From positions 1-50,705 of IMG/VR virus record IMGVR_UViG_3300025769_000013: a DNA stretch of 50,705 nucleotides. One strand, given 5' to 3'. The notes beneath the pieces were generated by a model. The model worked only from the letters and a program-made list of their open reading frames with translations, had not been told where the DNA came from and did no database searches. Below are positions 8,334-40,518 of this stretch, one piece after another. The translations under genes and the position numbers were made by a program. Within the stretch, counting starts at the first letter, position 1. Every line of letters begins with the position of its first letter. This DNA comes from a virus. Its lineage: Duplodnaviria; Caudoviricetes.

Positions 8334-8336
8334 TAT

Positions 8337-8411
8337 GGTAGGGAGGGCGTTGGTTCCCAGATGAGACTCATAACCTCATCCACACTGGTTCGATTCCAGT
8401 CCCTGCTCCCA
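8337..8411 (+). tRNA. atypical tRNA with CAU anticodon (Met/Ile2-like)
   Basis: Acceptor GGTAGGG/CCCTGCT, D arm GGG-cgttggtt-CCC, anticodon arm GATGAG-a-CTCATAA-c-CTCATC, T arm ACTGG-TTCGATT-CCAGT, encoded CCA. Confidence 0.8.
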
Positions 8412-8429
8412 ATTTTTTCGTATAAACAC

Positions 8430-11815: not shown

Positions 11816-12050
11816 AATCAGATGGTTGCGGACTACGCACTTGATTCCCCCGGGTGGATGGAAATTCAAGGACCCAGACAGTCAGCTACCTATCACCGCA
11901 CCGACTTTCGAGGCACTCAAGGAACGAGTCATCACCCACCGGACTTACCTGGGGAATGACACCAGCAATTACCCGGATGAGATTGAGCATCAAATTTGTT
12001 CAGAGATTCCTGAGTCCTGGTGGCAGGACAAACCGAGAACTGTATCATGA
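11802..12050 (+). CDS. hypothetical head-module protein
   Basis: PPGGWKF..HR...IEHQIC; overlaps terL end and portal start. Confidence 0.75.
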   Translation: MDLHKIRWLRTTHLIPPGGWKFKDPDSQLPITAPTFEALKERVITHRTYLGNDTSNYPDEIEHQICSEIPESWWQDKPRTVS

Positions 12051-14200
12051 ACGACCTGAGTGAAATTACGAACGAACGGAGAGTAGGAACAGTAGTTTCT
12101 GCAAATACTCTCTACCAGAAACTAAAGAAAAAGGGTGATGAGCGGGAACGTGGATTTGCCTCCATCGAAAACCAGATCAATGGTGGACGCCCCTATGATC
12201 CTCAAAAGCTGGCGGAGCAGGGGCAATCCTGGCGAGCAAACTTCAATTTTGGAGATGCTGCCAGTGCGTTAGAGCAGGCCCAGGTCTCCTACTGGAGGTT
12301 GCTGCACGATACATCCAACCTTCTGAATGTGGAAATCCACGGAGACCATCAACATAAGGATCGATGGTCTCAAACCTTGGTGCATAATTTTAACCGATTC
12401 ATTGAAGACTGGGGTGATGAGTATGTTCTGAACTATCTCCAATTTTCACGAAACCATTTAATGTATGGAGTTGGTCCTGTCATTTTCCCAGATAAAGACT
12501 CAGCCCGATGGGAACCTATAAGAACAAATGGTGTCCTCGTCCCTGAACGAGCAAAATCTGCATCCAGTAAGCAGGAAATCGTCTGCATCCGCCAGGAAAT
12601 GCAAGTGTCTGAACTCTGGGAGAAGATTCGGACCGATAAAGCAAAGGGGCATAACACAACCCGTGGCTGGAAGGTAAAAGAGATCCGGGATGTTTTGTAT
12701 CACACTCTGAGAAACGGACAGAAGGCATCCAGTGAGGATGACCTAATAAAGATGGAGGATAGTATCCGAAATCGGAGCACTGAGGTCTCTGAGGAGCATG
12801 GTGCTATCAATATGGTCTACCTCTATGTAAAAGAGTGGGACGGAAAAGTCAGCAAGATGATGTTCTGCGAGGACAACCCTACTGCAGGTTTCGTTTTTGA
12901 TGATCATGATACCGCATTCCGAAGTGATTCAATCGATGACGATATTAGTTTTGTCTTCTTTGAAGTCGGGAATGGACTTTACCATTCCGTCAGAGGATTT
13001 GGATACAAAAACTACCAAACCAGCATCGCATCGAATCGATTGAAGTGTAAAGTACTGGACCGTTGCACCATCGAAGGTCTCAATTTTCGGGATACCTCCG
13101 AAGGGACTCGGACTATCCTGCCGATTGTGAACATGGGTGCGTACAATATCGTGCCGAGAGATTTGGAGCAATTGCCAAACTATCCGGGCTCGTCATCAAT
13201 TGGAGATGCTCTTGGAATGATCCAGGATACAGTCAATTGGAATAATGCCCGGTACAGGGACCAATCCCAACAGATTGAGCAATCAAATACTGCTACCCAA
13301 GCACGGATCCTGGCTAATCTTCAATCTCAGGTTGAAGTCTCCAACGCGACCCTTTACTTGAAACAATTTGCCCAGAATATCATGGCGAAACAGTTCGAGA
13401 GACTACGCCGGAAAGGGAATACTGATCCGGATGCGGTGCTATTTAAAAAACGGTGTACCGAGGATGGCAAAATGCCAGTGGAAGCTTTCCATACAATTGA
13501 AGTTACTGTTGGTACTGGAGCGGACCCTGGAAAGACCTCTGCAGCACTGCAGGCCGAGATCTCCTTCCAACTTCTTCAACTCCAGGGTAACCGATATGTC
13601 AATCGACGTGCTGCCACGGAGGCGTATATTGAAAGTACCACTGGAGCTTCCTCAGTGAAGCGGTTTATCCTTCCAGAGGATCAGCTTGAGGACAAGGGTG
13701 CAGTCCGCCTTGCCCAGATTGAAAATACCAGCCTGGGTGACGGCGTACCTATTGAAGTGACCGAGCGTGATGACCACGTCATGCATATCATGACCCACAT
13801 GGAGCCACTAAAAGGAATTGTGGGAACCGCTCAAACGATTGAAGAGGGGCAAATTGGTATGCCAGCAAATGCAGGCATGCCTACGCAACCATCACTCTCC
13901 CAGGAGCAAATGATAGCTCTGGAGACTACCCTGCCCCACATCGCCACACACCTCGAGTACCTCAAACTGGATCCATTTCAGGAACAGGACTACCAGCAAT
14001 TGCAGGCGGAGTTTAAACAACTTGCGTCAGTGGCTGAAGGTATGATCCGAAAAATGGAGGAGACGGCACTGGCATTTGCTAATCAACAACAATTTGGAGG
14101 ACCAACGACACTCGATGGTGCCGACATGCAACCCACGCAAACCGATGAAACTATTCCAACGGATTTTTCACCGCAAGGACTCGATTCCTTTGCTCCCTAA
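12047..14200 (+). CDS. portal protein
   Basis: 717 aa directly after TerL; YGVGPV, TATQARI, DDHVMHIMTH motifs as in P22-like portals. Confidence 0.8.
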   Translation: MNDLSEITNERRVGTVVSANTLYQKLKKKGDERERGFASIENQINGGRPYDPQKLAEQGQSWRANFNFGDAASALEQAQVSYWRLLHDTSNLLNVEIHGDHQHKDRWSQTLVHNFNRFIEDWGDEYVLNYLQFSRNHLMYGVGPVIFPDKDSARWEPIRTNGVLVPERAKSASSKQEIVCIRQEMQVSELWEKIRTDKAKGHNTTRGWKVKEIRDVLYHTLRNGQKASSEDDLIKMEDSIRNRSTEVSEEHGAINMVYLYVKEWDGKVSKMMFCEDNPTAGFVFDDHDTAFRSDSIDDDISFVFFEVGNGLYHSVRGFGYKNYQTSIASNRLKCKVLDRCTIEGLNFRDTSEGTRTILPIVNMGAYNIVPRDLEQLPNYPGSSSIGDALGMIQDTVNWNNARYRDQSQQIEQSNTATQARILANLQSQVEVSNATLYLKQFAQNIMAKQFERLRRKGNTDPDAVLFKKRCTEDGKMPVEAFHTIEVTVGTGADPGKTSAALQAEISFQLLQLQGNRYVNRRAATEAYIESTTGASSVKRFILPEDQLEDKGAVRLAQIENTSLGDGVPIEVTERDDHVMHIMTHMEPLKGIVGTAQTIEEGQIGMPANAGMPTQPSLSQEQMIALETTLPHIATHLEYLKLDPFQEQDYQQLQAEFKQLASVAEGMIRKMEETALAFANQQQFGGPTTLDGADMQPTQTDETIPTDFSPQGLDSFAP

Positions 14201-18106: not shown

Positions 18107-18427
18107 ATGAGAAACATTAAACAATTTGCCCTGTTAGAGGGAGCAACTACCGCAGCCGCAGGCAGTGCAGTTAGCGTAGAAAACCAAAAGGGTTGGACAT
18201 TCCTTGTGGTAGCAACCGGAGTAACCACTGGAGCCACTGTGGAAATCCAGGCGAAAGTCAACGGCGAGTGGAAGGCGATCCACGAGGAGGCAGTAACTGC
18301 TACCGGGACATCCGACCCAATTCGTGACGAGCATGGTCACTACGAGTTCCTTCGTGCAGAGATCACCTCCTACACGGACGGCACCTATGACGTTGAGGCA
18401 GCAGGCACGAATCTCAAACAGGTGTAA
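18107..18427 (+). CDS. small beta-sandwich virion protein
   Basis: AAGGAG RBS; ATVEIQAK..GEW..FLRAEIT pattern. Confidence 0.7.
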   Translation: MRNIKQFALLEGATTAAAGSAVSVENQKGWTFLVVATGVTTGATVEIQAKVNGEWKAIHEEAVTATGTSDPIRDEHGHYEFLRAEITSYTDGTYDVEAAGTNLKQV

Positions 18428-21189
18428 TGCCAATCCAACTTCCATCAGCTAAACAGGATCCCTGGGTCTTACCAAATAAGATCCAGCGACCTAACAAGAT
18501 ACAGTTTCTCCCGGCGTACACGCCCCGTCCTCAATTCTATGCAATGGACGGCACGAATCATCTCACATCCACTTTTGATCCTTCAACCATCGGGACGGGG
18601 GATATTACGGTGTCCTGTTGGGTACGTATTCCTTCTCAACCTTCAGGCACTGATTACGTATGGATACTCGGTAACGACAATCTCGATGACTCGTTAGCTT
18701 TACGCATTCGATCATCTAAGCTTGAGGCGTTCGGTAGAGTAGGGACGACAGGAGAGGTAGAGGTTGCGGCTGCGAATCCGATGTTAAATGACTTTTGGCA
18801 TCATGTGGTAGTGACCAGGACAGGTACGACTATTGAGCTTTTTGTAAACGGCACTAGCAATAACTCAGCTACCAATGCGGAAGCTGCTGCTGATCTTAGC
18901 GATGGCGAAACTTGGTTTGGGTATCATGCAGGTGTAGCGAATTTCACAGGCGACATTGCCAACATTGAGATCCGCTCAGGCATTGCTACCGACTCCGAGA
19001 TTTACAATAATTTCCGCAGTAACACAGCTTACACTACTGGCACTGCACAAACGGTAGAGATTACCAATAATGGAGCAACGGCTTCCAATAGCCCTATTCC
19101 GTTAGCGTGGGGGAATCAGCATAGTTTTTATTTCGATGGAGCAAACGACGATATTGATCTAGGTTCTATTTCCTCCCTTAACTCAGCTTCTCAGTTTTCC
19201 ATAAGTATGTGGTTCAGGGGGAGTGAAGATAACTCTATTGGTAATATGTTTGGTGCATGGGGAGCTATCGCCAATAATAACATTGGTTTATCCCCAAACT
19301 ATGACCTGGATATTTTTTACTTTGTTGTTCGGTCTGGTTCTGCTGCTGCTTCACTTCAGGTTAATAGCATGTCCACCTATGCTCCGGCGGATGAGTGGAA
19401 TCATGTCCTTGCCGTTTTTGATAACGGAGATCGCTATGTTTATATTAATGGGGTTCTACGTGCAAGCGACACAGGGGTAGCTCCAGCAACCACCTCGGCT
19501 TCTTGTGGTGATAATGTTTCCATCGGGCAACGTGAAAACGCTTATTACGAAGGCTTTATTGATGAGTTTCGTTATTATGCCGATACTGCATTAGATGCTG
19601 ACGATGCGACTACACTATATAATGCAGACACCCCAATAGACTCTACTCTATCTCCATCTTACTACCTCCACGAAGGTTCAGGTGCTGACTGGTCGGGTAA
19701 TAATGTCTTAGCTACTCTCCAGTCTGGTGCAGTTCCTTCCAGTGATGTTCCTGTACTTACAATTCCTGATTGGGTAAGCGAACACAGTTTAGACCTTAAT
19801 GGATCTTCACAGTATGGCGTTGCCGATGACCATGATGACTTAACATTCAACACAGGAGGCACAGATGATGCCTTTAGTGGAGGTTGTTGGGTCAAAATGG
19901 ACGATGCGACGAACTTCGTCATTTTTGATAAGACAGTTGAGTACACATTTTATGTAGACAGTTCTGACAAGCTTGCACTCGTACTAGCAACTGACGCTTC
20001 TAATTATCTTTACACACGCACGACATCAACAGTCACTTCTCACGAAGGCTCATGGGTGTATCTTTCCTTCGCTTATGATGGCTCCGAGACGCATGGCGGA
20101 ATTACTTTGTATGTAAATGGAGTCTCACAATCGACGGAAGATCAAGGCTCAGGCACGTACACGGGCATGACCAATACATCAGCTACGTTGAGACTAGGTT
20201 ATGACGGCACAAACTACGCAGATGGTCACGCGTCTAACGTATCAATTTGGACTGCGGAAGTCGATGCGGATGCTATGACAAAGCTTGCAATTGAACCAAT
20301 TGATATAATGTCGGCGGATGGCGACTATGACTACCAGGGCAATGTTGAAGCGTTCTTGCCGCTTGAAACAGGGTTCGGGCCATTCGTGATTGACTACTCT
20401 GGTAATGGTCATCACGCAACTGCCCCTAGTGGTGCATTACCTACTTGGACAACGGATATACCTCCTGATACACGTTCCATTGATCTTGATGGTGTTGATG
20501 ATATTGTTGTCGTTTCCGATAATGATGTTTTCTCCTTTGGTGATGGCGTAAGTGATTCTGCGTTCTCGGTTGTTATTATCTGTAAGATGGATGATGATGA
20601 TCGTTTTCGAGCTATAAATAAATCTGGAGCGTCTAATCGAGAGTGGGCGATAGGTACTAATTCATCGGGTCAACCATACTTTCAGTTATGGTCAGGTGGG
20701 GGTAGTACGGTACAGTTAAATGTTACACATAATGGCGGAGGGTTTTCATCAGACCAAGGCTTATGGGTTATGTATGCTGGGACTTATGACGGGAGTGGTA
20801 ATGTTTCAGGTCTTTATATGTATCGTAATGGTGTTGATGTTTCTGACACTCGTCTCAGCATAGGAGGTAGTTACGTTGCTATGTCTAATACCGCTCAAGA
20901 CGTGCAAATTGGAAAAGGTTACGGGAATATAGTCGGGCATGGAAAGATATTCACTGCTGGTATTTGGAATAATGTACTAACAGCCGCCGAGCTTGTTGAA
21001 CTATGGAACGGCGGTAATCCTATTCGCTTTAACGAGGACTCTGGTAACTACACATCTTCCTCTGACCTTATTGAAGAATGGCCTATGAACGAAGGTGGCG
21101 GTAATACTGCGGCAGGTGTAAACGGTTACGATGCAACCTTAACTCCGACTGGTGAACCTCTTTGGACATTGGATGTCCCTAACGCATAA
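18427..21189 (+). CDS. multi-LamG/concanavalin-A-like fibre or adhesin
   Basis: Four repeats of T/FS..CW...WHHVV/WNHV..T/YD....LYVNG....IG. Confidence 0.85.
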   Translation: MPIQLPSAKQDPWVLPNKIQRPNKIQFLPAYTPRPQFYAMDGTNHLTSTFDPSTIGTGDITVSCWVRIPSQPSGTDYVWILGNDNLDDSLALRIRSSKLEAFGRVGTTGEVEVAAANPMLNDFWHHVVVTRTGTTIELFVNGTSNNSATNAEAAADLSDGETWFGYHAGVANFTGDIANIEIRSGIATDSEIYNNFRSNTAYTTGTAQTVEITNNGATASNSPIPLAWGNQHSFYFDGANDDIDLGSISSLNSASQFSISMWFRGSEDNSIGNMFGAWGAIANNNIGLSPNYDLDIFYFVVRSGSAAASLQVNSMSTYAPADEWNHVLAVFDNGDRYVYINGVLRASDTGVAPATTSASCGDNVSIGQRENAYYEGFIDEFRYYADTALDADDATTLYNADTPIDSTLSPSYYLHEGSGADWSGNNVLATLQSGAVPSSDVPVLTIPDWVSEHSLDLNGSSQYGVADDHDDLTFNTGGTDDAFSGGCWVKMDDATNFVIFDKTVEYTFYVDSSDKLALVLATDASNYLYTRTTSTVTSHEGSWVYLSFAYDGSETHGGITLYVNGVSQSTEDQGSGTYTGMTNTSATLRLGYDGTNYADGHASNVSIWTAEVDADAMTKLAIEPIDIMSADGDYDYQGNVEAFLPLETGFGPFVIDYSGNGHHATAPSGALPTWTTDIPPDTRSIDLDGVDDIVVVSDNDVFSFGDGVSDSAFSVVIICKMDDDDRFRAINKSGASNREWAIGTNSSGQPYFQLWSGGGSTVQLNVTHNGGGFSSDQGLWVMYAGTYDGSGNVSGLYMYRNGVDVSDTRLSIGGSYVAMSNTAQDVQIGKGYGNIVGHGKIFTAGIWNNVLTAAELVELWNGGNPIRFNEDSGNYTSSSDLIEEWPMNEGGGNTAAGVNGYDATLTPTGEPLWTLDVPNA

Positions 21190-27759: not shown

Positions 27760-29103
27760 ATGGCAGTTTACGCACAAGCACCAGACGCACAACCCAACCC
27801 GGTTGGCACATTCATTAATGCCTTCTCGACTGGGCGTAACCTATTCCAGCAGAAGCAACGTCAAGAGATGGAGATGCAACGTCTTCAGAGAGCGGAGGAA
27901 CGTGCAGTTCGACAAGAGGAAAGGCAGGCAAAGCTTTGGAGTATGCAGATGAACTCGAAAGAGTTGGAGGTCGAGGCATTGGGGCGTCAGGCTGAAGATG
28001 ATATCGCTCGGAGAGATCGTGCCAGTGGAGATTTACCAAGGGCTTTGCAGCAGTTTGAATTGATTGGATCACAGATAGATGCAATGGAGGCGGCGAATGA
28101 AGAGGATGTCCCTGGATATCGGAGTAAGATTGCGACCATGTATGCAAAGCTTGAAGCAATCAAAGGTCGATACAGTCATGTCCAGGGAGATGCTCGGTGG
28201 GCAACTCAATTTGATGATGCCTACTATCAGGTAACCAATAAGCTTTCTCAGAAAGCAGCACCGTTGGAGGCAGTTCTTCCTGGTGCATTCAATAAGTTCC
28301 GAGAAGAGTTTGCATCACTAAAGGGAATTACTGACCTGAATGAGTATGCAGCAAGAGCAGGTGATATTGAAAAACGGTACGCTTACTTTGCTTCAGATCC
28401 CGTCCGTGGCCAGATGTTTGAGTCGATGGTGGATAAAATGGATGAGAATATCAAATCCATGAGAGAGAACCAATTCAAAGCACAGAAAGAGCAGCAAGAG
28501 CTCGAAGGGCTCAAACACTCAAATCAAAAAAAGGAGTTAGAAGTTGAATCTGCGAAGAAGCAGAAGGTTACTGATAAGAACAATGCAGTTAAAAACCAAC
28601 AGAGGTTACTGCAAGAGCGAGATAAGATTAGGCGTTTACGGAATGATATCCAGAATGCTGATTTTGGTGTAGGCGGAACAGGTACTATTATAGAGGCACT
28701 TAAGACAGCTAAAAGGCTCGGCGGAAGAAGTGCTGGTGCATCAATTGCAGACGAAATTGTTTCCGGTGAGTGGTTAAAGAATGTATCTGCTCTAAAGGGT
28801 GCTTTGTCTGATAAAGAAGGTGCAAGACTCGCAATTGCTGGGTTAAAGAGAACTGATGATAAGGCAGTCTGGTTAAGGAAGCTGAATAACCTCATAGCTG
28901 CATTGGATACTGATCGAGCTTTACTAAGTGAACAGGGGATGTGGTATATCGACGAAAAAGGGAAACCTTTTTCATTATCTGAGGGCACTGAGCAGGAAGA
29001 GATCGGCGATAGTGATGTCAATGATCTGCTCGGAGGTGGAGAATATACACCGCCAGAGGAAGAGCCTGATTTCAGTATTTTTGAAGACCCAGAGGGAAAT
29101 TAA
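27760..29103 (+). CDS. internal virion/ejection protein
   Basis: Coiled-coil; LKGALSDKEGARL motif seen in ejection proteins. Confidence 0.6.
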   Translation: MAVYAQAPDAQPNPVGTFINAFSTGRNLFQQKQRQEMEMQRLQRAEERAVRQEERQAKLWSMQMNSKELEVEALGRQAEDDIARRDRASGDLPRALQQFELIGSQIDAMEAANEEDVPGYRSKIATMYAKLEAIKGRYSHVQGDARWATQFDDAYYQVTNKLSQKAAPLEAVLPGAFNKFREEFASLKGITDLNEYAARAGDIEKRYAYFASDPVRGQMFESMVDKMDENIKSMRENQFKAQKEQQELEGLKHSNQKKELEVESAKKQKVTDKNNAVKNQQRLLQERDKIRRLRNDIQNADFGVGGTGTIIEALKTAKRLGGRSAGASIADEIVSGEWLKNVSALKGALSDKEGARLAIAGLKRTDDKAVWLRKLNNLIAALDTDRALLSEQGMWYIDEKGKPFSLSEGTEQEEIGDSDVNDLLGGGEYTPPEEEPDFSIFEDPEGN

Positions 29104-29107
29104 AGCA

Positions 29108-32100
29108 ATGGGATACACAGACACAGAGAAGCAGGAGATTCTAGCAGGGGTTCCTGAGGATGTGAAAAACCGTGCAAGGCAAGGTGATCGTGATGCAATC
29201 GATTTGATTAAAGGGAAAATTTCGGAATGGAAGTCAGTGACGGAATTACCACAGACACAGACTCAAGCTCCAAAAACTCTATCAGATCGATCTCGTGTTA
29301 TTGATCTGGCCAATCAGGATAACTTTAACTGGGATGAGATCTCTGGTCTAATCGATTCTGGTAAGCTTACGGATGAAGTGGTGGAGTTTTTCGCCAGTGA
29401 AGGGTATGGATTGGAGCAGTCCCTTACTGGTGGTCGGATTATCAATATTGGAAAGAAGGGTAACTATATTTCCAGCCCACAAGGGCGGATGCTCAGTAAG
29501 CTGGGAGAGAGTATTTCTTCTGTTGTTACAATACCCTGGCGTGGCCTTGGAGATAATGATCCAACATCCATGTCTAAGGATGATTTCTACAGGTATCTAT
29601 TAAAGCAACCCAAAGATGATTGGGCTCGGACAGGAGTTGAGAAATTAATCCGGAAGCAACTTCAAGAACGGCAACAAGAGGAACAGAAGGCATATGCACT
29701 TCATGGAGAAGATGCGAATGTCGATATGCACGGAAAAGCCGGAGCTTTAAGCCAAAAGAACGAAATCCCAGCACCAACTCCACAGGATTGGTTCCCAGAA
29801 AAGTTTCTGAAATCAGAAGATGGATCATATTCTGCAAACAAGAGTGAATTAAAACGATACAAATCTGTAATCCTGGAGAATGATCCATATGCGGCATCGC
29901 AGGTGGAACAATTGACCGGACGGGCAGTTGCTGACTTTTATTATGCCAAGAAGGAGGAAGACTCCCAGATGCTCGAACGATTAAATCAGCTTCAAGCAGA
30001 AGGAAGGACGCATCTTCATGACCCTGAGGTTTATGATTGGTTTGTCCGCAGGGGTATGGAGAAGACTCAGGACATCACCTTGGGCCAAGCGATTGACGCT
30101 GGTTGGGATATATTAGGACAAGTTTGGCAAGGGTTGGTTGGCTCGGAAGATGGTTCTGGGATTATCAAGGAATTCGGAGATACAGTATTCAAAGACGATG
30201 CTGCTGAGTATCAAGAGTTTGATGAACTGGTTGGAGAGTCATTCCGGGCATTGGGTTCTGACTACCAACTCCTGAGTGAAAATGCAGGCGGATACTTCTT
30301 GGATCTTATTGAAAAGGCGGATGACAAGGATAGTCCTGAAGCTCAGGAGTTGTATCGAAAAGCGAAATCTGAGCGAAATCGTAAGTTCCAGCTCAGGGCA
30401 TTATCAAACCAAGCAGTTTACGCAAGGGCATCCCAGTCATTGGCATTGAGTCAGGGGAAGAATCCCCAGCAGATGCAGAAGAATATTCTAACTGGTACAT
30501 TTACTTTTGATCCGATGAACTTCGTTCCTATGGGAGGTGTATCAAAAAAAGGTGCAGAGGCGACTCTTAGGGCTGGAGTGAATACACTAAATGATGGTGC
30601 ATTGAAGACTGCGAAGATTGCTGCTGACGAAGCATCGAAAGCTATTTCAGATGCACAAAAGGTGTTGATCGATGCAAAGAAAGCGGGGGATGGTGCTGCG
30701 ATCCAATCTGCCAAAAAGACTTATGATGACGCTTTGAAGCAATACGATAATGCTGAGAAGGCGTTAAAGGAGGCATCGACTAAGGTTGATAATATCTACC
30801 AGGAGTTATTGGAAGCAGGCATGCCAAAACTTTCGGGAAAAGCACTGGAGATGATGGGAGCCGCCGGAGAGTGGATCATGAAGAAAGGCGATGAGGCTTT
30901 AGATAATATCGCAGTTAAGATCGCCCCAGGCATGGCAGATGACACAAGACGATTGCTTGAAGGCGGAGTAAAAGTCGGTGTTGCTGCTACGTTAGGAGGG
31001 GCAAGTCTCGGAACTGTAGGTGCAGTCGTCGGAGGCGTATTGTTAGGAAGTCCAGTAGCAAGAGCACTTGCAAGAGATATGCGGTTAATGGGATCACATA
31101 TTGCACTTGGAGCAAGACTTCAGCCTCTACACCGAGCATTGCAAGCGACCACTGATGCAGGAGGAAATGTAATTTCTCCTGCTTCCTTTGGAACAAGAGT
31201 AGCGGCAAGAGGGTACGAGGCGGCATTTCCCTTTGTAGATCCAGTCGCCAGACTCGGAAGTCGAGTTGTTAAAGGAGTTGCCTCCGTGCAAACGGCGGAG
31301 GCGATGGCAATCCAGTCCGCTATCGGTTATTTGGGATCAGGAGGCACTTGGCAAGGTGCAGTGACTGGAGCGACAATGGGTTTTGGCATGGCAGGGTCTT
31401 TTGGTGCTGCTGGAGCACTTACGCCTTTTGGAAGTCAGAAACAGGTCAATCAATTGGCAGCAACGAATGCTAGGCATTACCGTGATATGTTAAAAGGCAC
31501 TCCTACTGGCGACGAGTTTGCAAAGCTACCATTTGAGGATCAGAAAGCAATAGCATGGGCTATGGGCGGTTTCACAGATACCGCACTCAAGATTATCAAT
31601 GACCCAAATGCACCTGCTGGAGCGTATAACCCAGCAAGGAATGAGATCAACATCAATACAGGGCGAAGAGAGTGGACTAAGGAGTTTGCCAGAAATGTAG
31701 CGAAACATGAACACTCTCATTACATCGCAAGGCATGTTGGTGTCCGTGAGAAAATCCTGAAGACTTTGTTGGCGGATGACTTCTCTCTCCAGTCAGGAAT
31801 CTTTGCTAAGAAGGGGAAAGATGGTAAAGCACTGTATAAGCTAGACCGTGATACTATCCGGGAGATCATGCGTAAAAATACGCAAGGTAAGTCTGTCGAT
31901 GAGGTAATGCAGGAACTTGGATTGTCCAGGGAAGCTGTTGAGTCACTTGGTCAGGTGTTGACTGTCGGTGATCGTCGTAGAAATGACGTTTACATTGAAA
32001 CCACTGATGACTTTAAGGACATCACCAATACATATTTGTCAAAACTGGCGGCATCCAACCCCTTTGCCGCCATTGATTTAATCAACAAAGGTGAGAGGTA

Positions 32101-35100
32101 TGTACAGGAGTACATTGCTGAAGAGATTTTTGCAGAACAGGGGGCAGCAGAAATTGCTAACTACACTCCAGCTTATGCGAAAAGCTTTCGACGAGCTGCA
32201 TGGAGAAAAGATTTGGATGCAGCTCTAAGCAACCCCAGGTTCTCAGGCAGGAAAGCAAGTGTGCTGGGGAGAATTGGTGCATTATTTGGATCTGACCAAA
32301 AGATCAACTCTTCTATATTGGGTGCATTTGACTCCATTCCTGAGTTTAAGGAAATATTTGACGGATACAATCACTCCAGGTCAATGAACCGTGACATGCA
32401 ATTGGCCGAATCCAATGCAGACGGGTTAGCACCTTCGGAGATACTTGATCCAAGAGACTGGGATGCGTCAGTCAGCACTCCATCCACTGAGTCCTTGAAG
32501 GCATGGGTCGCCAACGGGATGCTGGATGTAGATCCAAAGACTGGAGTCCCTAAAGGTATTGAAGTTCAGGCAGATGGAAGCTGGAGAGTCCGAGATCCAA
32601 ACCTTATTCGTCAATCTGCGAAAAATGCCGATAAGGCAGCAAAGGAGTTTGGTAGTGAGATAAAGGATTGGCTCGAAGATAACACGCAGCCTCCGAAGTC
32701 TGCCCAAGAGATTAAAGACTCTATCGACAGTCAGGCTCCCCCTCGATCTCAGGCTGAAAAGGATGCTCTGGATGAAGTGAAGAAGAAGATTGATGGAGGG
32801 GTGAAGCAGGATATCGAGAAGGAGATCCGGGTTCAAAAGTCTCAGTCCGTCCAGGCAACCAAGGACTACCTTGATGATGTTAGTCAAATTATCGACGACA
32901 ACATGGCCGATGATGATGTCGTTGCTCCACGGACTACCATTGATGGCCGAACTATTATTGCAGGCAGATACCTTCCTGAAGACCTACTGACACACCTTGA
33001 AAAGTCTGGGAGGTTTAACCCTCATCAATTACAGAACCTCCGCAATTTGAACCAGTATTTGAAGGATGGACTACATGCCACTCCGATTACGGTGATGTAC
33101 CAATCCACGATGCGAGCTGGGAAAGCAAAGCCTATTGCTGCTGCGGAAAAGACTGTCTATGTAACTGGGTTTGAGGTTACTCAGCAAGGAAACTTTATTT
33201 ACCGCATTTGGAACATTGACAAAATCATGACCAATGGGGCTAAGAAGATGAACTCCAAGATTGGTAAACAGCTTTACAATGGTGATATTGGGCAGTTCAA
33301 TCAGGATGTCTACACTTACTTCAATAACTACGCAAAAGGACTTCCTGGAGCTACTGGATTGAGTGCGACCAAGCGAGATTTCATCCGCAAAGCCATTGGT
33401 CTTGCTGACCCTAACACATCCTCTAACTCTGGAAGGACTCCAAACCCATACGCTTGGAATGTCCAGCCGTTAAAAGACGCAAAGGATACAGCGTTAAACT
33501 CCTATAGACTTGATCGCACAAATTGGATTGACCTTGGGAACCCAAGGATGAAGAAACCGCTGGATGCTCCATTGACATCAAGGGAAGGACCAAATCCAGG
33601 TAGTTACCAGCGGATCAGGGAGAATTACCACCCTGGCGACATAGACTACCTTGACGCAGTGGAGTCTGGTGACATGGAGACTGCTCAGAAGATGGTGGAT
33701 GAGGCTGCGAAGAAGGCGGGATGGACTGTATTGGCATGGCATGGCACTACGCAGGGAGCGTTAAAAGGAAACAAGTTTGATCCCAGTAAACAGCAAAGAG
33801 GCTTCATTACTTCCGCAGGGTATTTCACAACAGATAAGCGAGCGGCAGCAGGGTACGCAACCTCTGGAGGGGCGGGACATTACCCAAAAGGCAGCAAAGA
33901 AAGGAAGGCTCTCGAAGGAGGGGAAAGGCCGTACGACCCTTCACTATATAGAGTTTACTTAAAAGGCGACTGGTGGAAGGGTGATATTGATACAGATGCT
34001 CTAGTTGAGGCAGTGAACACTGTAAACAACAAAGGTATTGCCGATGAGTTTGATTTAGAGTGGACCTCGACATGGGATGATAAGGAAGGGTATGCCAGTC
34101 GTACTGACAGTTACCCAGACGTAGTCTTTGATACTCCAGAGGAATGGTTAAGGGACTTTGTCGAGAAAGGTGAGTTTGATTCGTACGTAGGAAACGATAC
34201 GGATGCTATTGGTTCTGAGTCACCTATTGCATTTGTCTTTTCTAATTGGGAAGTTGGTAAAGAATATCTGAATATAACAAAAAAAGATGGAGTTACTTAC
34301 TTTGATAAGGAAACAACCGAAGTTGATGCGTTTTCCGATAATGCAACTACTTATGTCCCCACGAATCCCAACCAGATCAAATCCGCCGACCCCGTGACTT
34401 ATGATGATGCTGGTAGCGTCATTCCGTTGAGTGAGCGATTCAACCCCAAGAGCGACGATATCCGCTATCACCCAGGCACTGACTCCGACTACCTAAAAGC
34501 AGTGGAGTCTGGAGACACTGAGACTGCTCAGAAGATGGTAGACGAGGCTGCGAAGGCTGCGGGGTATAAAGTTGTTTACCATGGGACGACCAAAAAGGGA
34601 TATACCAATATATGGAAGTCAGGAAAACTGAAACCAGATGCAGAACCAGCAGTTTATGTCACCACCGATTCAGAAGGTGGTGGTTATGGAGATGGCACTG
34701 TTCTCCGAATTGGAATTAAAGAAGGTCGATTGGAAATCGATGATGAATTCCCAGGCGGAAGAGAAGATTATCGTGTGGAGGTGGGTTACCAGGGAGAGAT
34801 TCAAATCAAATCCGCCGACCCCGTCACCTACGATGATGCTGGTAACGTCATCCCGCTCTCCGAGCGATTCAACCCGAAGAGTGACGATATTCGCTTCTTC
34901 CCTGGACTCGATGACGAATCCACCAAACGTGCAGGCTTCAACTTCACTGCAGTCTCCGATCGTATTCCTGTCATCCGTGACCTCTACGCGAAGAAAGACT
35001 GGGAAGGACTCAGGGAGATCAATCGATCACTTATCTCCCACGCCCTGGCTGACATCCCCAGAAGTAAACTCAAAGTAACCACAGAGGATATCCATGGTGT

Positions 35101-37933
35101 CTGGATGGGCGAAACTGAGCCCACCATCCGCGTGGAAGTGGAAGCTGCAGATGACGCCACTCTTGATCAGGCTCGTCGCCGCATCAACGCCCTGGGTGCC
35201 ATCTTCGATCAGGATGAGGTCCACGAATTTCAGAGGGCGAGCATGGGTGACAATGATCAATTTGGGGTAACTCCAGGGGCAGTAGATCAATTCCAACCCT
35301 TCGCCCGTATCTTTGTAGAGGATCCATCCAATCCAGGAAGAAAACTTGACTGGAGCGAACTGGAACCTTATCGTGCTCAAACTGATCTTCTAGGAGCCTC
35401 ATTTGATGGAAACGAAATTTTTGTTTACGGAGTTGATGGTAACGAGAAGGTATTTCTCCAAAATGTAAAAAAACTTGAGCAACTGATCCAAAATGGGAAC
35501 CTTAGCCGAATTCAAAAAACTTCTGAATACGGAGCAATCCGTCTTAGGAGGGCCAGCAGGGATATGGGTAGACCCGAAACCCGAGGATACCAAGAAAGTG
35601 CATTTTCGGATGGTCCAGTATCCCAAGAAGGACAACCAGGCGATAAAGGACTCCGCTCCGACCTCGCCCTCCGAGTCTTAAAGTTTACAGGGGGACGCAT
35701 CCTCTCACCCAAAGACGCCAAGCGATCCCTCTTCGTAGGGAAAGATCTCACTCCCGAGCAGGTCGAGCTCCAGATCAAGATCGCTGACCACTACGAACAG
35801 GCTCCAGTCAATGACATGGACCGCCCGATTGTGCAACGTGCTTACCGAGCTCTCCAGAAAGAACTCGTGGATCAATATAAGGCAATCGTCGAAGGGATGG
35901 AGATCATTGGAGTCCCCTGGAGACGCAAAAAGGACGGAGAGTGGATTGAGGGTGATATCTACCCAAGTTCCAAGGAAGCAGTCCGAGATATCCGCCAGAA
36001 CAATCGGATGGAATACCTCCTAACCGACCCCGATGCATTTGGACCCCAGGGAGAAGACTTCTCAGGACACCCACTCCTGGAAGACTCTGGAATTGAAGTC
36101 ATGCTCCAGGATGCGGAAACCGGAGAGCTCCGGCCCTACTCCGCCAATTACAACGATATTCTCCGAGTCGTCCATGACGTCATCGCTCACGGACTTTATA
36201 CTGACCAATTTGGCCCTATCGGAGAAGAGGGAGCCTACCGCACTCACGCCGTTGTCACTCAGGATCCATTTGCCATTTGGACATTGGCTAACGAGACACG
36301 GAATCAAAACTCCTGGGTCAACTACGGTCCCCAGGTACGTGGCAAAGATGGCCAGCTTATCAAGAAAGGTGAACCCGGGTTCCGGTCGATCCCTGAACGC
36401 GAATTTGCTGAACAGAAAGCCATTCTCCTTCCAGTCGATGACCTCCTGACCGGAGTCCCTGAAATCGATCAGAAAGTTGAATCCCTCAGGGCAATGCTTA
36501 CTCCAGAGGAAGCAATGGGCAGTTTGGCTGAATCAAGTCAGGTCCGATACTACCCTGGCACTGATGATGATGCTATTAGGACTTCAAGTAAGAATATTCT
36601 TACGAATCAATCCTCAAAAGGAACAGTAAATGAAATTGGAGAGGCAGCTACAATCTTCAAGGAGTCCTTCATTGAGCAATTTGGTGAAGTAATGACTGCA
36701 AAAGATATGGGGGATGATCAAATAAAGTGGCTGGCAGATCAATTAGTGCAGGAAGCTTTAGTAGAATTCGATAAAGTTGATAATGCAGTAGATTGGTACA
36801 CAACTGCTGTAGAAGGTATGCTTAAGAAAGCTGAAACTTTGTTTCCAGAAATCTCTGATCGTGGAATTGATTATCATACATTCCTAGCTGCAGTTGCGAT
36901 CACATCCCAGAATCTTGCGGTACGCGACAACCTTGCATATGCAGTCGGTCAGTACGAGTACCGCAAGAAGAATGGTGTCTTTAATTACAAGGAAGATGTT
37001 GGAAGTAAGGCTGAAGCGATTCGTGGAAATTTAAAACTTTTCGATAGACTTATCAAAGAGCTAGGAGAAGAGGATTATATTCAATTTACCCAGAGAGATT
37101 TCACAATAAAAGAGTTATCAAGCGACCTATCAGAAGTCTTGGGCAAGAAAGTAAATATAGCAGGCTATCAATCAGACTCAGTAAAAGGATCTGCGGCATT
37201 CGGTCCAAAGATTGGCCAGGGATTTCTCCAGAATCTCTTGGGCAACTATGACCCTGTAACTGTAGATCTCTGGTTGCGAAGAACATTTGGTCGCTTAACT
37301 GGCGATGCCATTCGGAAAGAATTAACTGTCCAGGATATTGGAAGGTTAGTCTTTGCGTTTAAAAATAGAAGTAATCGAGGTAAGTTTAAATTACCGGAAG
37401 ACATCAATCTGCCAGATTACCTGAAAGGACTTCGACTTGAGGGCTCAGTCACTAAAAGAGGTTCTCAGCATAAGATCACTGGATCCGCATTTAGTCGTCT
37501 ATTTAACCCCAAAACAAAAGAAGGTGCTGCAAGACAAGAAGAACTTCGCCAATTAGGAAAAGTATTAAATTCTGCATGGGAAAGCACGTATAAACGGGAG
37601 GTTCCAAAGCTTGGAAAAGAAGAAGTAGGCAAACGAAAGCCATATTGGGCTTATATTGGAAGCACCTTGAACGGGAAATTTAAACCAGTTGACGCCCCAT
37701 CAAACTTGGAACGAAAGGTTATTACACAAGCGTTTGAGATTGTTCGGAAGCGTCTCAAAGAGGAACATGATCTTGACTTCACTAACGCAGATCTTCAAGC
37801 TCTCCTTTGGTATCCAGAAAAGGATATATGGGGTCACCTCACTGGCGAAAGTGCCGACTCCTTAAAGGAAGACTATTCAACTGCAATGGAGGCAATTCTC
37901 AATGAGCGAAACAGAGCCACAGGAACTGAATGA
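29108..37933 (+). CDS. giant injected polyvalent protein (~2941 aa): ejection core, zincin peptidase, two ADP-ribosyltransferase-like domains, further effector domains
   Basis: HEHSH + EEIFAE; WHGT..YFT / YHGT..YVT with QIKSAD ends; HDVIAH domain; C-terminal GPKIG..FL.NL..VTVDLW..LQALLW. Confidence 0.85.
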   Translation: MGYTDTEKQEILAGVPEDVKNRARQGDRDAIDLIKGKISEWKSVTELPQTQTQAPKTLSDRSRVIDLANQDNFNWDEISGLIDSGKLTDEVVEFFASEGYGLEQSLTGGRIINIGKKGNYISSPQGRMLSKLGESISSVVTIPWRGLGDNDPTSMSKDDFYRYLLKQPKDDWARTGVEKLIRKQLQERQQEEQKAYALHGEDANVDMHGKAGALSQKNEIPAPTPQDWFPEKFLKSEDGSYSANKSELKRYKSVILENDPYAASQVEQLTGRAVADFYYAKKEEDSQMLERLNQLQAEGRTHLHDPEVYDWFVRRGMEKTQDITLGQAIDAGWDILGQVWQGLVGSEDGSGIIKEFGDTVFKDDAAEYQEFDELVGESFRALGSDYQLLSENAGGYFLDLIEKADDKDSPEAQELYRKAKSERNRKFQLRALSNQAVYARASQSLALSQGKNPQQMQKNILTGTFTFDPMNFVPMGGVSKKGAEATLRAGVNTLNDGALKTAKIAADEASKAISDAQKVLIDAKKAGDGAAIQSAKKTYDDALKQYDNAEKALKEASTKVDNIYQELLEAGMPKLSGKALEMMGAAGEWIMKKGDEALDNIAVKIAPGMADDTRRLLEGGVKVGVAATLGGASLGTVGAVVGGVLLGSPVARALARDMRLMGSHIALGARLQPLHRALQATTDAGGNVISPASFGTRVAARGYEAAFPFVDPVARLGSRVVKGVASVQTAEAMAIQSAIGYLGSGGTWQGAVTGATMGFGMAGSFGAAGALTPFGSQKQVNQLAATNARHYRDMLKGTPTGDEFAKLPFEDQKAIAWAMGGFTDTALKIINDPNAPAGAYNPARNEININTGRREWTKEFARNVAKHEHSHYIARHVGVREKILKTLLADDFSLQSGIFAKKGKDGKALYKLDRDTIREIMRKNTQGKSVDEVMQELGLSREAVESLGQVLTVGDRRRNDVYIETTDDFKDITNTYLSKLAASNPFAAIDLINKGERYVQEYIAEEIFAEQGAAEIANYTPAYAKSFRRAAWRKDLDAALSNPRFSGRKASVLGRIGALFGSDQKINSSILGAFDSIPEFKEIFDGYNHSRSMNRDMQLAESNADGLAPSEILDPRDWDASVSTPSTESLKAWVANGMLDVDPKTGVPKGIEVQADGSWRVRDPNLIRQSAKNADKAAKEFGSEIKDWLEDNTQPPKSAQEIKDSIDSQAPPRSQAEKDALDEVKKKIDGGVKQDIEKEIRVQKSQSVQATKDYLDDVSQIIDDNMADDDVVAPRTTIDGRTIIAGRYLPEDLLTHLEKSGRFNPHQLQNLRNLNQYLKDGLHATPITVMYQSTMRAGKAKPIAAAEKTVYVTGFEVTQQGNFIYRIWNIDKIMTNGAKKMNSKIGKQLYNGDIGQFNQDVYTYFNNYAKGLPGATGLSATKRDFIRKAIGLADPNTSSNSGRTPNPYAWNVQPLKDAKDTALNSYRLDRTNWIDLGNPRMKKPLDAPLTSREGPNPGSYQRIRENYHPGDIDYLDAVESGDMETAQKMVDEAAKKAGWTVLAWHGTTQGALKGNKFDPSKQQRGFITSAGYFTTDKRAAAGYATSGGAGHYPKGSKERKALEGGERPYDPSLYRVYLKGDWWKGDIDTDALVEAVNTVNNKGIADEFDLEWTSTWDDKEGYASRTDSYPDVVFDTPEEWLRDFVEKGEFDSYVGNDTDAIGSESPIAFVFSNWEVGKEYLNITKKDGVTYFDKETTEVDAFSDNATTYVPTNPNQIKSADPVTYDDAGSVIPLSERFNPKSDDIRYHPGTDSDYLKAVESGDTETAQKMVDEAAKAAGYKVVYHGTTKKGYTNIWKSGKLKPDAEPAVYVTTDSEGGGYGDGTVLRIGIKEGRLEIDDEFPGGREDYRVEVGYQGEIQIKSADPVTYDDAGNVIPLSERFNPKSDDIRFFPGLDDESTKRAGFNFTAVSDRIPVIRDLYAKKDWEGLREINRSLISHALADIPRSKLKVTTEDIHGVWMGETEPTIRVEVEAADDATLDQARRRINALGAIFDQDEVHEFQRASMGDNDQFGVTPGAVDQFQPFARIFVEDPSNPGRKLDWSELEPYRAQTDLLGASFDGNEIFVYGVDGNEKVFLQNVKKLEQLIQNGNLSRIQKTSEYGAIRLRRASRDMGRPETRGYQESAFSDGPVSQEGQPGDKGLRSDLALRVLKFTGGRILSPKDAKRSLFVGKDLTPEQVELQIKIADHYEQAPVNDMDRPIVQRAYRALQKELVDQYKAIVEGMEIIGVPWRRKKDGEWIEGDIYPSSKEAVRDIRQNNRMEYLLTDPDAFGPQGEDFSGHPLLEDSGIEVMLQDAETGELRPYSANYNDILRVVHDVIAHGLYTDQFGPIGEEGAYRTHAVVTQDPFAIWTLANETRNQNSWVNYGPQVRGKDGQLIKKGEPGFRSIPEREFAEQKAILLPVDDLLTGVPEIDQKVESLRAMLTPEEAMGSLAESSQVRYYPGTDDDAIRTSSKNILTNQSSKGTVNEIGEAATIFKESFIEQFGEVMTAKDMGDDQIKWLADQLVQEALVEFDKVDNAVDWYTTAVEGMLKKAETLFPEISDRGIDYHTFLAAVAITSQNLAVRDNLAYAVGQYEYRKKNGVFNYKEDVGSKAEAIRGNLKLFDRLIKELGEEDYIQFTQRDFTIKELSSDLSEVLGKKVNIAGYQSDSVKGSAAFGPKIGQGFLQNLLGNYDPVTVDLWLRRTFGRLTGDAIRKELTVQDIGRLVFAFKNRSNRGKFKLPEDINLPDYLKGLRLEGSVTKRGSQHKITGSAFSRLFNPKTKEGAARQEELRQLGKVLNSAWESTYKREVPKLGKEEVGKRKPYWAYIGSTLNGKFKPVDAPSNLERKVITQAFEIVRKRLKEEHDLDFTNADLQALLWYPEKDIWGHLTGESADSLKEDYSTAMEAILNERNRATGTE
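33644..34564 (+). repeat. intragenic repeat A (33644-33721 and 34487-34564)
   Basis: DYL.AVESGD.ETAQKMVDEAAK.AG; 12 mismatches in 78 nt by manual count. Confidence 0.9.
34373..34906 (+). repeat. intragenic repeat B (34373-34477 and 34802-34906)
   Basis: QIKSADPVTYDDAG.VIPLSERFNPKSDDIR..PG twice, mostly synonymous differences. Confidence 0.9.
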
Positions 37934-38491: not shown

Positions 38492-39133
38492 TTACGCCGC
38501 CTGTTTGAGGACACGGGCAACGGTGGTGCCGTGCCAGGTGCCACCCTTTGGAGAAGGTACACCCTCGCCATTAAGGATCTCAGCAATCCCACGAATGGAG
38601 ACCTTCTCTTCACGGAGTCCAACAATCTTGGAAATGGTTTCCTGGTCATCGTAGGGTTTCTGACCACCACAGCGACCAGTCTGGGCCTTTACGTGAGCAC
38701 GGGCAGAAGCCAGACGGGCAACAAGCTGACTTTTCTGGAACTCTGCCACTGCTCCGAGGACCTGGCGGATCAGGGTGCGGGTGGAGTCCCCTTCGATGTT
38801 GGTGAGTTCCACACCACTGGTGTCAAATACGGGAATGCCAGCATCTCTGAATTGGGCAAGGATGACCTCCCCTACCAGTAAATCCCGTGCGATACGGTCA
38901 CTGGACTCCACCAGGATGGTGACGCCTTCCTCCACGCTCGCAATAAGGTCAGAGAGACCCTGGCGAGAAAATCCATCAGTGGTTCCACTTACACCTTCAT
39001 CACTGAAGGTCTTAACAATCTTGTATCCATTCGCTTTTGCGAAGGCACGAATGTTTTCTTCCTGACGGGTTAATCCGTTCCCATCGATCTGCCCGATGGA
39101 GGAAACTCTTAAATAGGAAAATGCGATTTTCAT
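38492..39133 (-). CDS. serine recombinase (resolvase/invertase family)
   Basis: YLRVSS..Q, DEGVSG...RQGL, VESSDRIAR, C-terminal HTH with GTWHGTTVARVL. Confidence 0.93.
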   Translation of the reverse strand: MKIAFSYLRVSSIGQIDGNGLTRQEENIRAFAKANGYKIVKTFSDEGVSGTTDGFSRQGLSDLIASVEEGVTILVESSDRIARDLLVGEVILAQFRDAGIPVFDTSGVELTNIEGDSTRTLIRQVLGAVAEFQKSQLVARLASARAHVKAQTGRCGGQKPYDDQETISKIVGLREEKVSIRGIAEILNGEGVPSPKGGTWHGTTVARVLKQAA

Positions 39134-39163
39134 GTACACGATAATCAGTAAGTTATGTGTACA
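39133..39163. promoter_or_regulatory. inverted repeat at serine recombinase start (operator/res-like)
   Basis: TGTACAC(g)ATAA-tcagtaag-TTATGTGTACA. Confidence 0.55.
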
Positions 39164-39183
39164 GATCAACCTAAAAAACAGCA

Positions 39184-39463
39184 TTGGGTTACTTTTTGGA
39201 GTAACCCGACCCTACTTATCCCTTTGATAGAAATGGATATCTTTGGTTTCCGGAGCCGAAAATCTGGGTTCGAGTCCCGGCGGGAGCACCAAGTCACTAA
39301 TAGAGCGGGAAACCGCTTAAATAAAGGGATCAAGAAGGAGATAGTTGACGAATCGGGTTACTTTCAACAGGGTCAAGAGAGTCAAAAAGTACAAGAAAAA
39401 GTAACCCAAAAAGTAACCCAAGGGCATTTTTTGAGGGTTGGGTTACTTAATTTAGTAACCCAA
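39184..39463. repeat. seven AGTAACCCRA integrase arm-type sites
   Basis: Copies at 39184(-), 39200(+), 39353(-), 39400(+), 39412(+), 39438(-), 39454(+). Confidence 0.85.
39243..39291 (+). other. attP core: 3' part of tRNA-Arg(CCG)
   Basis: Anticodon arm TTGGT-TTCCGGA-GCCGA, T arm CTGGG-TTCGAGT-CCCGG, CGGGAGC-A-CCA; 5' acceptor strand absent; next to integrase. Confidence 0.88.
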
Positions 39464-39468: not shown

Positions 39469-40518
39469 ATGACCAAAAAAATAAAAATTTACAGACTCCT
39501 TGATCGCTCGAAACAAAAACTTGGCAAGAAATGTTTCGGAGTTCGGGTCAAAGTGGATGGGGCAAAGCCATTCGCCAAATTCTTTTACACACAACTAGAA
39601 AGAGAAACGTGGGTTGATGAATGGAAGATTGAACGCGAAGAAGGCGTCTTTGAAGTTGTATCAAGCAAAGGCAATACAACCACACAAAGTCGTTCGCTCC
39701 ACTGGGCTATTGATGAGTATTTGTCCTATGGAGAGAAAAAAGGCTGGAGGAGTCACACGATTCGCACCAGAAAGCATCGTTTGGGGGAATTAGGAAAGTT
39801 CTTTGGCGATGTAGGGATGAAGACCATTGAGCGGAAAGATGTCATCAAATTCATTGAGAAGTCAGCAGCCACCAATGTTCTCCGTAAGGCCTGGTGCAGT
39901 GACACAGTCTCCTTCTTTAATTGGTGTGGAAATGAAGACCAGGGGCGGACTTGGTTACCACCATACAAGTTTTCCAAGCTTCAATGGACCCGACTCGCCG
40001 AGGATGAGACTGGAGTTGGGATACTATATCCTGATGAAGCCGAGGATATACTAAATGGCATTTTACCAAAATACCGTGCAGGGATGGCGTTGGCTCTATT
40101 TGCCGGAATTCGCCCAATGGGGGAACTGGATCGTTTACGCTGGGATGATATTCACTTTCGCAGGCAACGTATCATTATTGAAGGGAAAGTATCAAAGACT
40201 CGGAGACGCCGGGTCCTATCAGACCTTCCTGAAAATCTATGGTCTTGGCTTGAAGCCTATAAAAAAGAAAAGGGTCCAGTGATCCATAGTTATTCCGGTT
40301 TCACCCAGGCCCGATACCGGGCTTGTAAGCGTCTCGGTATTAAATATCCACCAGATGGAGCCCGACACTCCTTTGCGAGTTATGGATACTGGCGTGGTGA
40401 AGAATGGTGCCGGAGGACGATGGGGCATACTGCGACCTCCGATGTCTTTCACCGGGTCTACGTGGATGCAGGTCCTAGTCAGGCTGAGTCAGAGGAATAC
40501 TTTGGTATTCTGCCTTAG
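39469..40518 (+). CDS. int: tyrosine integrase
   Basis: LFAGIRP..EL..L.WDDI, SKT, DGARHSFASY, MGH, HRVY. Confidence 0.93.
   Translation: MTKKIKIYRLLDRSKQKLGKKCFGVRVKVDGAKPFAKFFYTQLERETWVDEWKIEREEGVFEVVSSKGNTTTQSRSLHWAIDEYLSYGEKKGWRSHTIRTRKHRLGELGKFFGDVGMKTIERKDVIKFIEKSAATNVLRKAWCSDTVSFFNWCGNEDQGRTWLPPYKFSKLQWTRLAEDETGVGILYPDEAEDILNGILPKYRAGMALALFAGIRPMGELDRLRWDDIHFRRQRIIIEGKVSKTRRRRVLSDLPENLWSWLEAYKKEKGPVIHSYSGFTQARYRACKRLGIKYPPDGARHSFASYGYWRGEEWCRRTMGHTATSDVFHRVYVDAGPSQAESEEYFGILP

Follow-up and report, generated by a model that had tools for sequence, protein, structure and literature searches.

A recurrent peptide motif at the module borders of a giant phage polyvalent protein, a possible processing site for an in-cis zincin-like peptidase

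The virus record IMGVR_UViG_3300025769_000013 (hereafter the window, meaning its entire length) is complete, with 50,705 bp and direct terminal repeats, and encodes a giant protein in an open reading frame (ORF) of 3001 codons (28928..37933, + strand, open from a GTG at 28928), the C-terminal part of which is a string of modules delimited by the short motif [YF][HFY]PG. Related giant proteins exchange modules at this motif, each with a private form of it, and we tentatively interpret it as a site-specific processing site that would be read by a zincin-like metallopeptidase domain of the same polypeptide. With at least six separable modules in 3001 aa, the protein combines very large size with several unrelated effector-type domains, as is characteristic of the polyvalent proteins of phages and conjugative elements (Iyer, Burroughs, Anand, de Souza and Aravind, 2017; PMC5512222). 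Its first ~1,500 residues represent a constant part, while the last 1,431 residues form the exchangeable module string.

The strict motif [YF][HFY]PG is present in exactly four copies, which account for 4 of the 12 PG dipeptides of the protein. Junction 1 (YHPG, aa 1567, nt 33626-33637), as part of N-Y-H-P-G (aa 1566-1570, nt 33623..33637), ends the constant N-terminal part and is followed by DIDYLD. Junction 2 (YHPG, aa 1847, nt 34466-34477; RYHPG, 34463-34477), junction 3 (FFPG, aa 1990, nt 34895-34906; RFFPG, 34892-34906) and junction 4 (YYPG, aa 2541, nt 36548-36559; RYYPG, 36545-36559) precede TDSD, LDDE and TDDD, respectively, all on the + strand. An earlier note on this DNA had placed four such motifs at these positions, each with acidic residues behind it, and all four were found as described. 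In 20,000 residue shuffles the motif occurred 0.059 times on average and at most twice; 0.19% of the shuffles reached two copies and 0/20,000 reached at least four. Junctions 2 and 3 are not independent of each other, because each terminates the same repeated 35-residue tail (QIKSADPVTYDDAG.VIPLSERFNPKSDDIR), which is encoded by a 94-nt direct repeat with 85% identity and closes modules resembling ADP-ribosyltransferases (ARTs). Junctions 1 and 4 have no ART tail in front and share nothing beyond five residues with the ART-tail junctions. Synonymous codons differ among the four copies. The base composition shifts along the string, as had also been pointed out: block 3 is C-rich (GC 0.514, with C at 0.267 exceeding G at 0.247; third-codon-position GC (GC3) of block 3b 0.554) and block 4 is AT-rich (GC 0.411, GC3 0.333), compared with a GC of 0.465 and a GC3 of 0.426 in the constant N-terminal part. 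The proposed division of the tail into four motif-preceded blocks stands insofar as the motifs lie at borders, whereas block 3 has to be divided further, into at least two modules (3a and 3b) whose common border lacks the motif. The earlier note had missed that two of the four copies belong to a conserved ART-module tail and that the motif is one lineage's variant of a junction signal with a far wider distribution.

A search with the tail identified 650 giant homologs; the comparisons reported here use the 120 listed, most of which carry PF18760, and BLASTP of the query against 119 of these listed homologs yielded 437 high-scoring segment pairs (HSPs). A megablast search of the tail against GenBank phages gave no match. 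The closest relative among the homologs compared, P0004 (the product of the giant ORF in IMG/VR loci L002 and L003), is 61% identical to the query across aa 61-1571, rising to 83% in the 90 aa that directly precede junction 1. The match stops at RENY[HY]PG, the next 480 residues are unrelated, and homology returns at [QD][VI]RY[YS]PG and continues through block 4 at 55%. P0003 matches block 3 at 76% but the N-terminal part at only 25%, and its match ends at SRHHPG followed by VDD, where an ART takes the place of block 4. The block-3b copies of P0172 and P0171 are flanked by VQFSPG/RQFSPG and HFRPDAN/QLRPDAKDD, respectively, and QYHPG, DIRFSPS, VQYSPA and LRFAP occupy the aligned position in P0005, P0020, P0014 and P0019. 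Furthermore, HSP boundaries cluster at the motifs, with 60 starts at aa 1570-1579, 52 ends and 48 starts at aa 1840-1859, and 89 ends at aa 1990-1999. Junction 4 is less sharp and is crossed by eight HSPs; P0006 and P0019 still have a junction of their own type there. Judged from these alignments, the motifs mark real module borders. The earlier suggestion that the tail is built of cassettes is borne out by relatives that change cassettes exactly at the motif (P0004, P0003, P0171/P0172), and the check proposed with it, to align homologs and look for domain switches at the motif, revealed the switches there.

The motif in the window belongs to a broader pattern. The ART tail (QIKSADPVTYDD.GNVIPLSERFN....DIR[YF]), which is located past the end of the Pfam ART-PolyVal model, was found 157 times in 83/121 proteins. 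It is usually followed by Ser, the common form at the end of ART modules being ...IPLSERFNxxxxDIR[YF]S, and the PG form is restricted to close kin. On sequence comparison, [YF][HFY]PG is the lineage form of a widespread signal consisting of a basic residue, an aromatic residue, any residue, and Pro or a small/aliphatic residue. When 155 ART tails were compared by column, the ART body was equally alike within and between proteins (~0.07-0.1 in both cases), whereas the junction columns +8 to +25 were much more alike within a protein (0.3-0.6) than between proteins (0.08-0.2). Such private words recur at low flank identity and include FSPG in P0172 (4 copies), RPDA in P0171 (4), RFQPAD in P0035 (4-5), RFALD in P0028 (8-10), FMPG in P0046 (5), RFSV in P0110 (6) and RF[AS]P in P0019 (6). 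A recurrent word with p < 1e-6 in a Poisson test was detected in 41/122 proteins, some of these words being ART head or tail words. In 22 proteins, for which flavour patterns were written by hand after viewing the data, 78/105 flavour sites are at most 12 aa away from a breakpoint cluster in the homology comparisons, compared with 18.2 expected. Upstream of block 4 (<=60 aa), [YF]xP[small] is present in 15/33 proteins (3.6 expected), and the flavour at this position follows the host protein and not the cassette. As far as the alignments tell, the junctions of any one giant protein all share a flavour that is private to it. Since the word is the same within a protein, differs between proteins and stands in unrelated flanks, a lineage-specific reader is suggested. 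Neither the junction motif nor a private per-protein flavour is described in the main text of PMC5512222, the supplementary alignments of which were outside our scope and may show the ART tail. Literature searches with the motif strings returned nothing relevant, and among titles on polyvalent proteins none concerned junction motifs.

The constant part contains a zincin-like metallopeptidase domain (31445..32287, + strand, aa 840-1120). HEHSHYIARH begins at aa 927 (HEHSH, nt 31706-31720), His936 follows five residues past the second His, and EEIFAE is found at aa 1065 (nt 32120-32137). M48 peptidases are defined by HExxH and, further towards the C-terminus, a Glu that is part of an ExxA[DE]-type motif, and HEHSHYIARH and EEIFAE provide both elements. 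HExxH, the His five residues on and E.FAE are kept in 5/5 N-terminal homologs, and HE..H....H[GE]L and E.FA[ED] are conserved among distant relatives (24 segments compared). The AF2 model of the peptidase (21-row alignment) reached a pLDDT of 80.1 and a pTM of 0.76. VIA-align listed PprI/IrrE first (Z 6.9, 97 residues, rmsd 3.0), followed by ArdC (5.2), jannalysin (5.2), selecase (5.1-5.2) and 6mdx (5.1), which we take to be SPRTN, and at lower rank by M32 carboxypeptidases (4.6-5.0), HtpX (4.4) and BepA (4.3), all of these Z scores lying below 8, where a match may reflect a common arrangement only and is not decisive. With a profile of the peptidase the best PDB sequence match was an M48 peptidase (E 0.047), and Peptidase_M48 (PF01435) matched 10/21 family members weakly (best E 0.0022) without reaching its gathering score. 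With moderate confidence, we regard the domain as zincin-like with an M48/M78-like signature, and not as a member of a curated family. The upstream HExxH metallopeptidase of the earlier note, for which HEHSH and EEIFAE had been given at these same coordinates, has thus turned out to be a conserved zincin-like domain with a confidently modelled fold and zincins at the top of the structural list. HExxH is present in 93/120 giant homologs (1 in the shuffle), and in 56/64 it precedes the first ART tail. A profile search of 1.84 billion proteins found 51 matches, 49 of them new, and ~40 of these 49 have HExxH at the matched region.

Just ahead of the zincin domain, a hydrophobic Gly/Ala/Val-rich segment (30974..31075, + strand, aa 683-716; maximum of 1.66 in a 19-residue Kyte-Doolittle window) is the sole stretch of the whole protein that reaches >=1.3 on this scale. 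The segment is possibly membrane-inserting, and its position recalls membrane-anchored M48 peptidases as well as membrane-entering ejection proteins. The peptidase model also contains an insert (GKSVDEVMQELGLSREAVESLGQ; 31832-31957, ~aa 969-1010) that resembles a small helix-turn-helix, for which resolvase, ParB, KorB and small-terminase DNA-binding domains scored Z 4.2-4.7 and to which weak GerE and Sigma70_r4 Pfam matches in family members correspond. Tail-bearing giants without HExxH include P0018, P0043, P0065 and P0085, and C39-type cysteine peptidase Pfam domains are listed for P0043; different protease classes may serve the same giant architecture.

In the reading we favour, the giant polyvalent protein would travel in the virion and enter the cell with the DNA. 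Its constant N-terminal part contains the hydrophobic segment and the M48/M78-like zincin domain, and its tail is a string of exchangeable effector modules, namely two ART-type modules, the two-part 3a+3b and a DUF7178-like module. Each exchange point displays [N/R]-[Y/F]-[H/F/Y]-P-G and then acidic residues. This signal would act at the protein level and be read by the zincin of the same polypeptide, and each module would become an effector of its own once the chain has been packaged or ejected. Recognition by the peptidase, cleavage at the motif and delivery into the host are what we infer here. Processing by the zincin is favoured because it is the sole enzyme common to most of these chains, and we give this reading somewhat less than an even chance. 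A further proposition, which we hold with distinctly less confidence, is that the giants are polyproteins with a private junction code, in which the zincin of each lineage co-evolved with its own cassette-flanking site (N/R-Y/F-x-P-G here; FSPG, LRPDA, RFQPAD, RFALD, DIRYS and others elsewhere). If so, any cassette with the right flanks could be plugged in, pass through the tail within a single chain and be set free inside the host.

Several observations weigh against processing by the in-cis zincin. Beyond the low structural Z scores, a Foldseek search with the peptidase model returned nothing at E <= 1e-3, its weak rows being mostly zincins, and the peptidase segment of the window itself has no Pfam match at E <= 1 and no significant PDB sequence match. 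HExxH is missing in 18/82 ART-tail proteins. In the 49 further profile matches both the strict motif and ART tails are absent, so that the comparison of peptidase and site for co-evolution covers close kin only. The border between blocks 3a and 3b has no motif, P0008 lacks a clear motif at its 3/4 border, and 27/105 sites of the hand-written flavour patterns are off the breakpoint clusters, with 0/4 sites at breakpoints in P0041 and 1/6 in P0046. Furthermore, N4 vRNAP, ArdC and TraC1 have peptidases of this kind but undergo transfer without being processed (PMC5512222), and a peptidoglycan role is assigned to the metallopeptidase in the 2811-aa virion polyvalent protein of phage phi24B by the authors of its description (bioRxiv 10.64898/2026.04.10.717836).

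The last two precedents are also in line with the alternative that the motif is an uncleaved connector, a short turn or helix cap with Pro-Gly immediately ahead of the first helix of the following module, between modules that fold, unfold and thread the tail channel independently while remaining one chain, in which case the zincin would target host molecules or peptidoglycan and not its own chain. The proteins with ART tails but no HExxH fit this arrangement too, and in a low-confidence AF2 model of aa 1525-2030 (7-row alignment, pLDDT 39.3, too poor for placing domain borders) the Pro of junction 1 is the first residue of a helix, the ART head helices being the sole moderately confident parts (pLDDT 63-71). 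However, ordinary linkers drift freely, and nothing in a generic linker calls for a private five-residue word that one protein repeats at every junction, that other proteins replace by another word and that is set in unrelated flanks. We consider an uncleaved connector unlikely, without regarding it as far-fetched.

The motif could also be cut by another protease, either by a phage head-maturation protease in the capsid, in the manner in which T4 gp21 trims internal proteins inside the capsid, or by a host protease after entry. The private flavour implies a specific reader that nothing links to the in-cis zincin, and the tail-bearing proteins without HExxH (18/82) would be accounted for. ORF 1633-2532 of the window has a weak PHROG match to a head maturation protease (E 3.5e-5), but its Pfam matches are only weak ones of coiled-coil type; its identification as a prohead protease is not supported, and no further protease was recognised in the genome. 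A host enzyme would not explain flavour differences among related phage proteins. Cleavage by either type of enzyme appears improbable.

Under a third alternative, the motif would mainly be a recombination handle, at which short shared DNA guides exchange with the help of a Sak4-like annealase, and would have no role in the protein. The earlier note had allowed for such a homology handle. Breakpoints between relatives lie exactly on the motif, GC3 drops at junction 4 (0.554 before it, 0.333 after it), genes for a Sak4-like annealing protein and a single-stranded DNA-binding protein (SSB) are present in the phage, and cassette-like recombination was raised for one polyvalent system by Iyer et al. 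(PMC5512222). In contrast, the DNA in common amounts to only 12-15 nt, synonymous positions vary among the four copies, and junctions 1 and 4 share only five residues with the ART-tail junctions. In comparison with L003, third codon positions under identical residues agree in only 14/31 cases in the ART tail and 35/75 before junction 1, which is near saturation. Because synonymous sites differ and third positions are nearly saturated, the junction is conserved as a peptide and not as DNA, and a mere handle is accordingly quite improbable. A motif without any function of its own, derived from duplicated ART-tail leftovers plus coincidence, is very improbable, given that motifs 2 and 3 do close a duplicated 35-residue tail but motifs 1 and 4 have no ART tail in front, that none of the 20,000 shuffles attained four copies and that the motif is kept at aligned positions amid other modules (P0003, P0004, P0005, P0019, P0171, P0172).

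Short delimiters between a constant N-terminus and variable cassettes are known from polymorphic toxins, including VENN of CdiA and PxxxxDPxGL of Rhs, the latter of which is also an autoproteolysis site. As in these toxins, a short peptide delimiter coincides here with the exchange point of variable C-terminal cassettes, whereas the window's protein is phage-borne, has several tandem delimited cassettes and no immunity gene, and belongs to a group in which the motif differs per protein. Directly after the variable end no immunity gene was found, the next gene being a recombinase on the opposite strand, with no small same-strand ORF behind the stop. In MARTX toxins and viral polyproteins, an in-cis Cys or Ser protease cuts recurring short sites between effectors, and these sites have been demonstrated. 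The giants described here resemble them in the effector chain, the in-cis protease, the mosaic content and the recurring short site between units, found at the four borders in the window and at breakpoints for 78/105 sites across the 22 proteins. Unlike in those systems, the enzyme here would be a zincin, and its cutting at the sites is a prediction. The peptidase shares HExxHxxxxH, an ExxA[ED] further along and a hydrophobic segment ahead of the domain with the M48/M78 minigluzincins (HtpX, Ste24, BepA; IrrE/PprI, ImmA), but it scores under all curated cut-offs, contains a helix-turn-helix-like insert and is embedded in a 3,000-residue chain.

Among the polyvalent proteins described in 2017, the window's protein has its counterparts in giant multidomain proteins with ART-PolyVal-type ARTs, a zincin-like peptidase and uncharacterised 'LPD'-like modules, for which DNA-coupled delivery and processing by the in-cis metallopeptidase have already been proposed (PMC5512222); it differs in that its peptidase matches no Pfam family at E <= 1. 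Compared by description only, gp47 of the Stx phage phi24B is likewise a giant polyvalent protein (2811 aa) with a metallopeptidase. It was detected by virion proteomics, is not in the cryo-EM map and was proposed to be an ejection protein, and the account given of it reports no processing (bioRxiv 10.64898/2026.04.10.717836). The polyvalent class and the idea of zincin processing are thus already known, while the junction signal and its private flavours appear to be new. Few phage proteins are as large or as poorly understood as the polyvalent ones, and the signal bears on how ten unrelated enzymes can be deployed in one chain. It also makes the 2017 zincin-processing idea directly testable, as it names the residues at which new termini would arise and the critical Glu, provides a practical rule for splitting giants into functional units for annotation and expression, and points to a natural plug-in format for effector trade among phages.

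The modules of the string differ in how far they can be assigned. Block 1 (33638..34477, + strand) contains a head helix (DYLDAVESGDMETAQKMVDEAAK), WHGT, YFTTD and QIKSAD and ends with the tail VTYDDAGSVIPLSERFNPKSDDIR and junction 2. The ART-PolyVal family (PF18760) has an active site of the form H...Y...D. Block 1 matches this family with an E of 1.3e-4 and 23.2 bits, under the cut-off of 31.2, and can be aligned at 40% with P0007, in which the ARTs reach 71.5 bits; block 1 is predicted to be an ART-PolyVal-like ADP-ribosyltransferase. Block 2 (34478..34906, + strand) is a short ART-like module with a head and a tail of the block-1 type, ending in junction 3. The head repeat (DYL.AVESGD.ETAQKMVDEAAK) extends over 77 nt at 86%, in addition to the 94-nt tail repeat at 85%. 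The only Pfam match of block 2 is a weak one to Tpt1/KptA (E 0.028); it does not match PF18760, its comparison with the Pfam-positive ART of P0010 was not significant, and no relative was found when it was used alone as a query for related loci.

Block 3a (34907..35752, + strand, aa 1994-2275) is a rare module, covered by 6/119 homologs and without a match in Pfam or PDB sequences. Block 3b (35753..36559, + strand, aa 2276-2540), which ends in junction 4, is widespread (34 covering HSPs) and matches PHROG 3170 (E 6.3e-7). In a tblastn search, 199 of its 210 matches were Mycobacterium phage records, e.g. the 433-aa gp102 of mycobacteriophage Rizal, and cyanophage records differ in the name they give it ('lysin', 'RelA/SpoT' or 'large polyvalent protein'). 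Its best PDB sequence match, the YbeY-like 1oz9 around VHDVIAHG, is not significant (E 0.67). Block 4 (36560..37930, + strand, aa 2545-3001) is a widespread AT-rich module of ~430 aa with 35 covering HSPs and a weak relation to Pfam DUF7178 (E 0.042). Blocks 3b and 4 are found in many different places in other giants, and either of them may come first. When the peptidase, block 3 and block 4 were each searched singly against PDB sequences, no match was significant, and ESM Atlas searches with the peptidase region and block 3b returned unnamed clusters only. A block-4 homolog is also part of a 3125-aa giant (3277-12654) in the 39-kb locus L006 (PQ492659.1, Limnohabitans phage DC33), the Inoviridae taxonomy line of which is an apparent mislabel.

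The giant gene closes the structural and tail gene block of the window. Its database copy (P0002) is 100% identical and starts at Met61 (nt 29108), directly behind the upstream gene, giving a protein of 2941 aa and a gene at 29108..37933 (+ strand). Based on this position at the end of the tail block and on the analogy to phi24B gp47, the giant protein is probably virion-borne and ejected into the cell with the DNA. The genome also encodes a terminase-like protein, tail-like proteins, a tyrosine integrase, a serine recombinase, a primase/helicase, and the SSB and Sak4-like annealase mentioned above, and most of the structural genes of the window lack any family match. Because of this gene content and the mostly unmatched structural genes, the window appears to represent a temperate phage from a group about which little is known. 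The gene after the giant ORF encodes the serine recombinase/invertase (38492-39184, - strand). Shufflon-like flipping or swapping of the 3' cassettes by this enzyme was considered and rejected, because no inverted repeats link the junctions with the recombinase region. Nested inverted repeats (39184-39213 with 39434-39463, 80% complementary; 39173-39199 with 39406-39432, 85%) bracket ~200-220 bp and sit exactly between the serine recombinase gene and the tyrosine integrase gene (39469-40518, + strand); this region (39173-39463) could be an invertible switch, an attachment site or a regulatory site. Within the structural block, a 920-aa protein (18427-21189) contains four concanavalin-A-like lectin/Laminin_G_3 repeats (E 1.9e-55) and is likely a receptor-binding or decoration protein. 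The terminase-large-subunit-like ORF (9089-11815) is unusually long with 908 aa, of which the first ~420 residues only are matched by terminase families.

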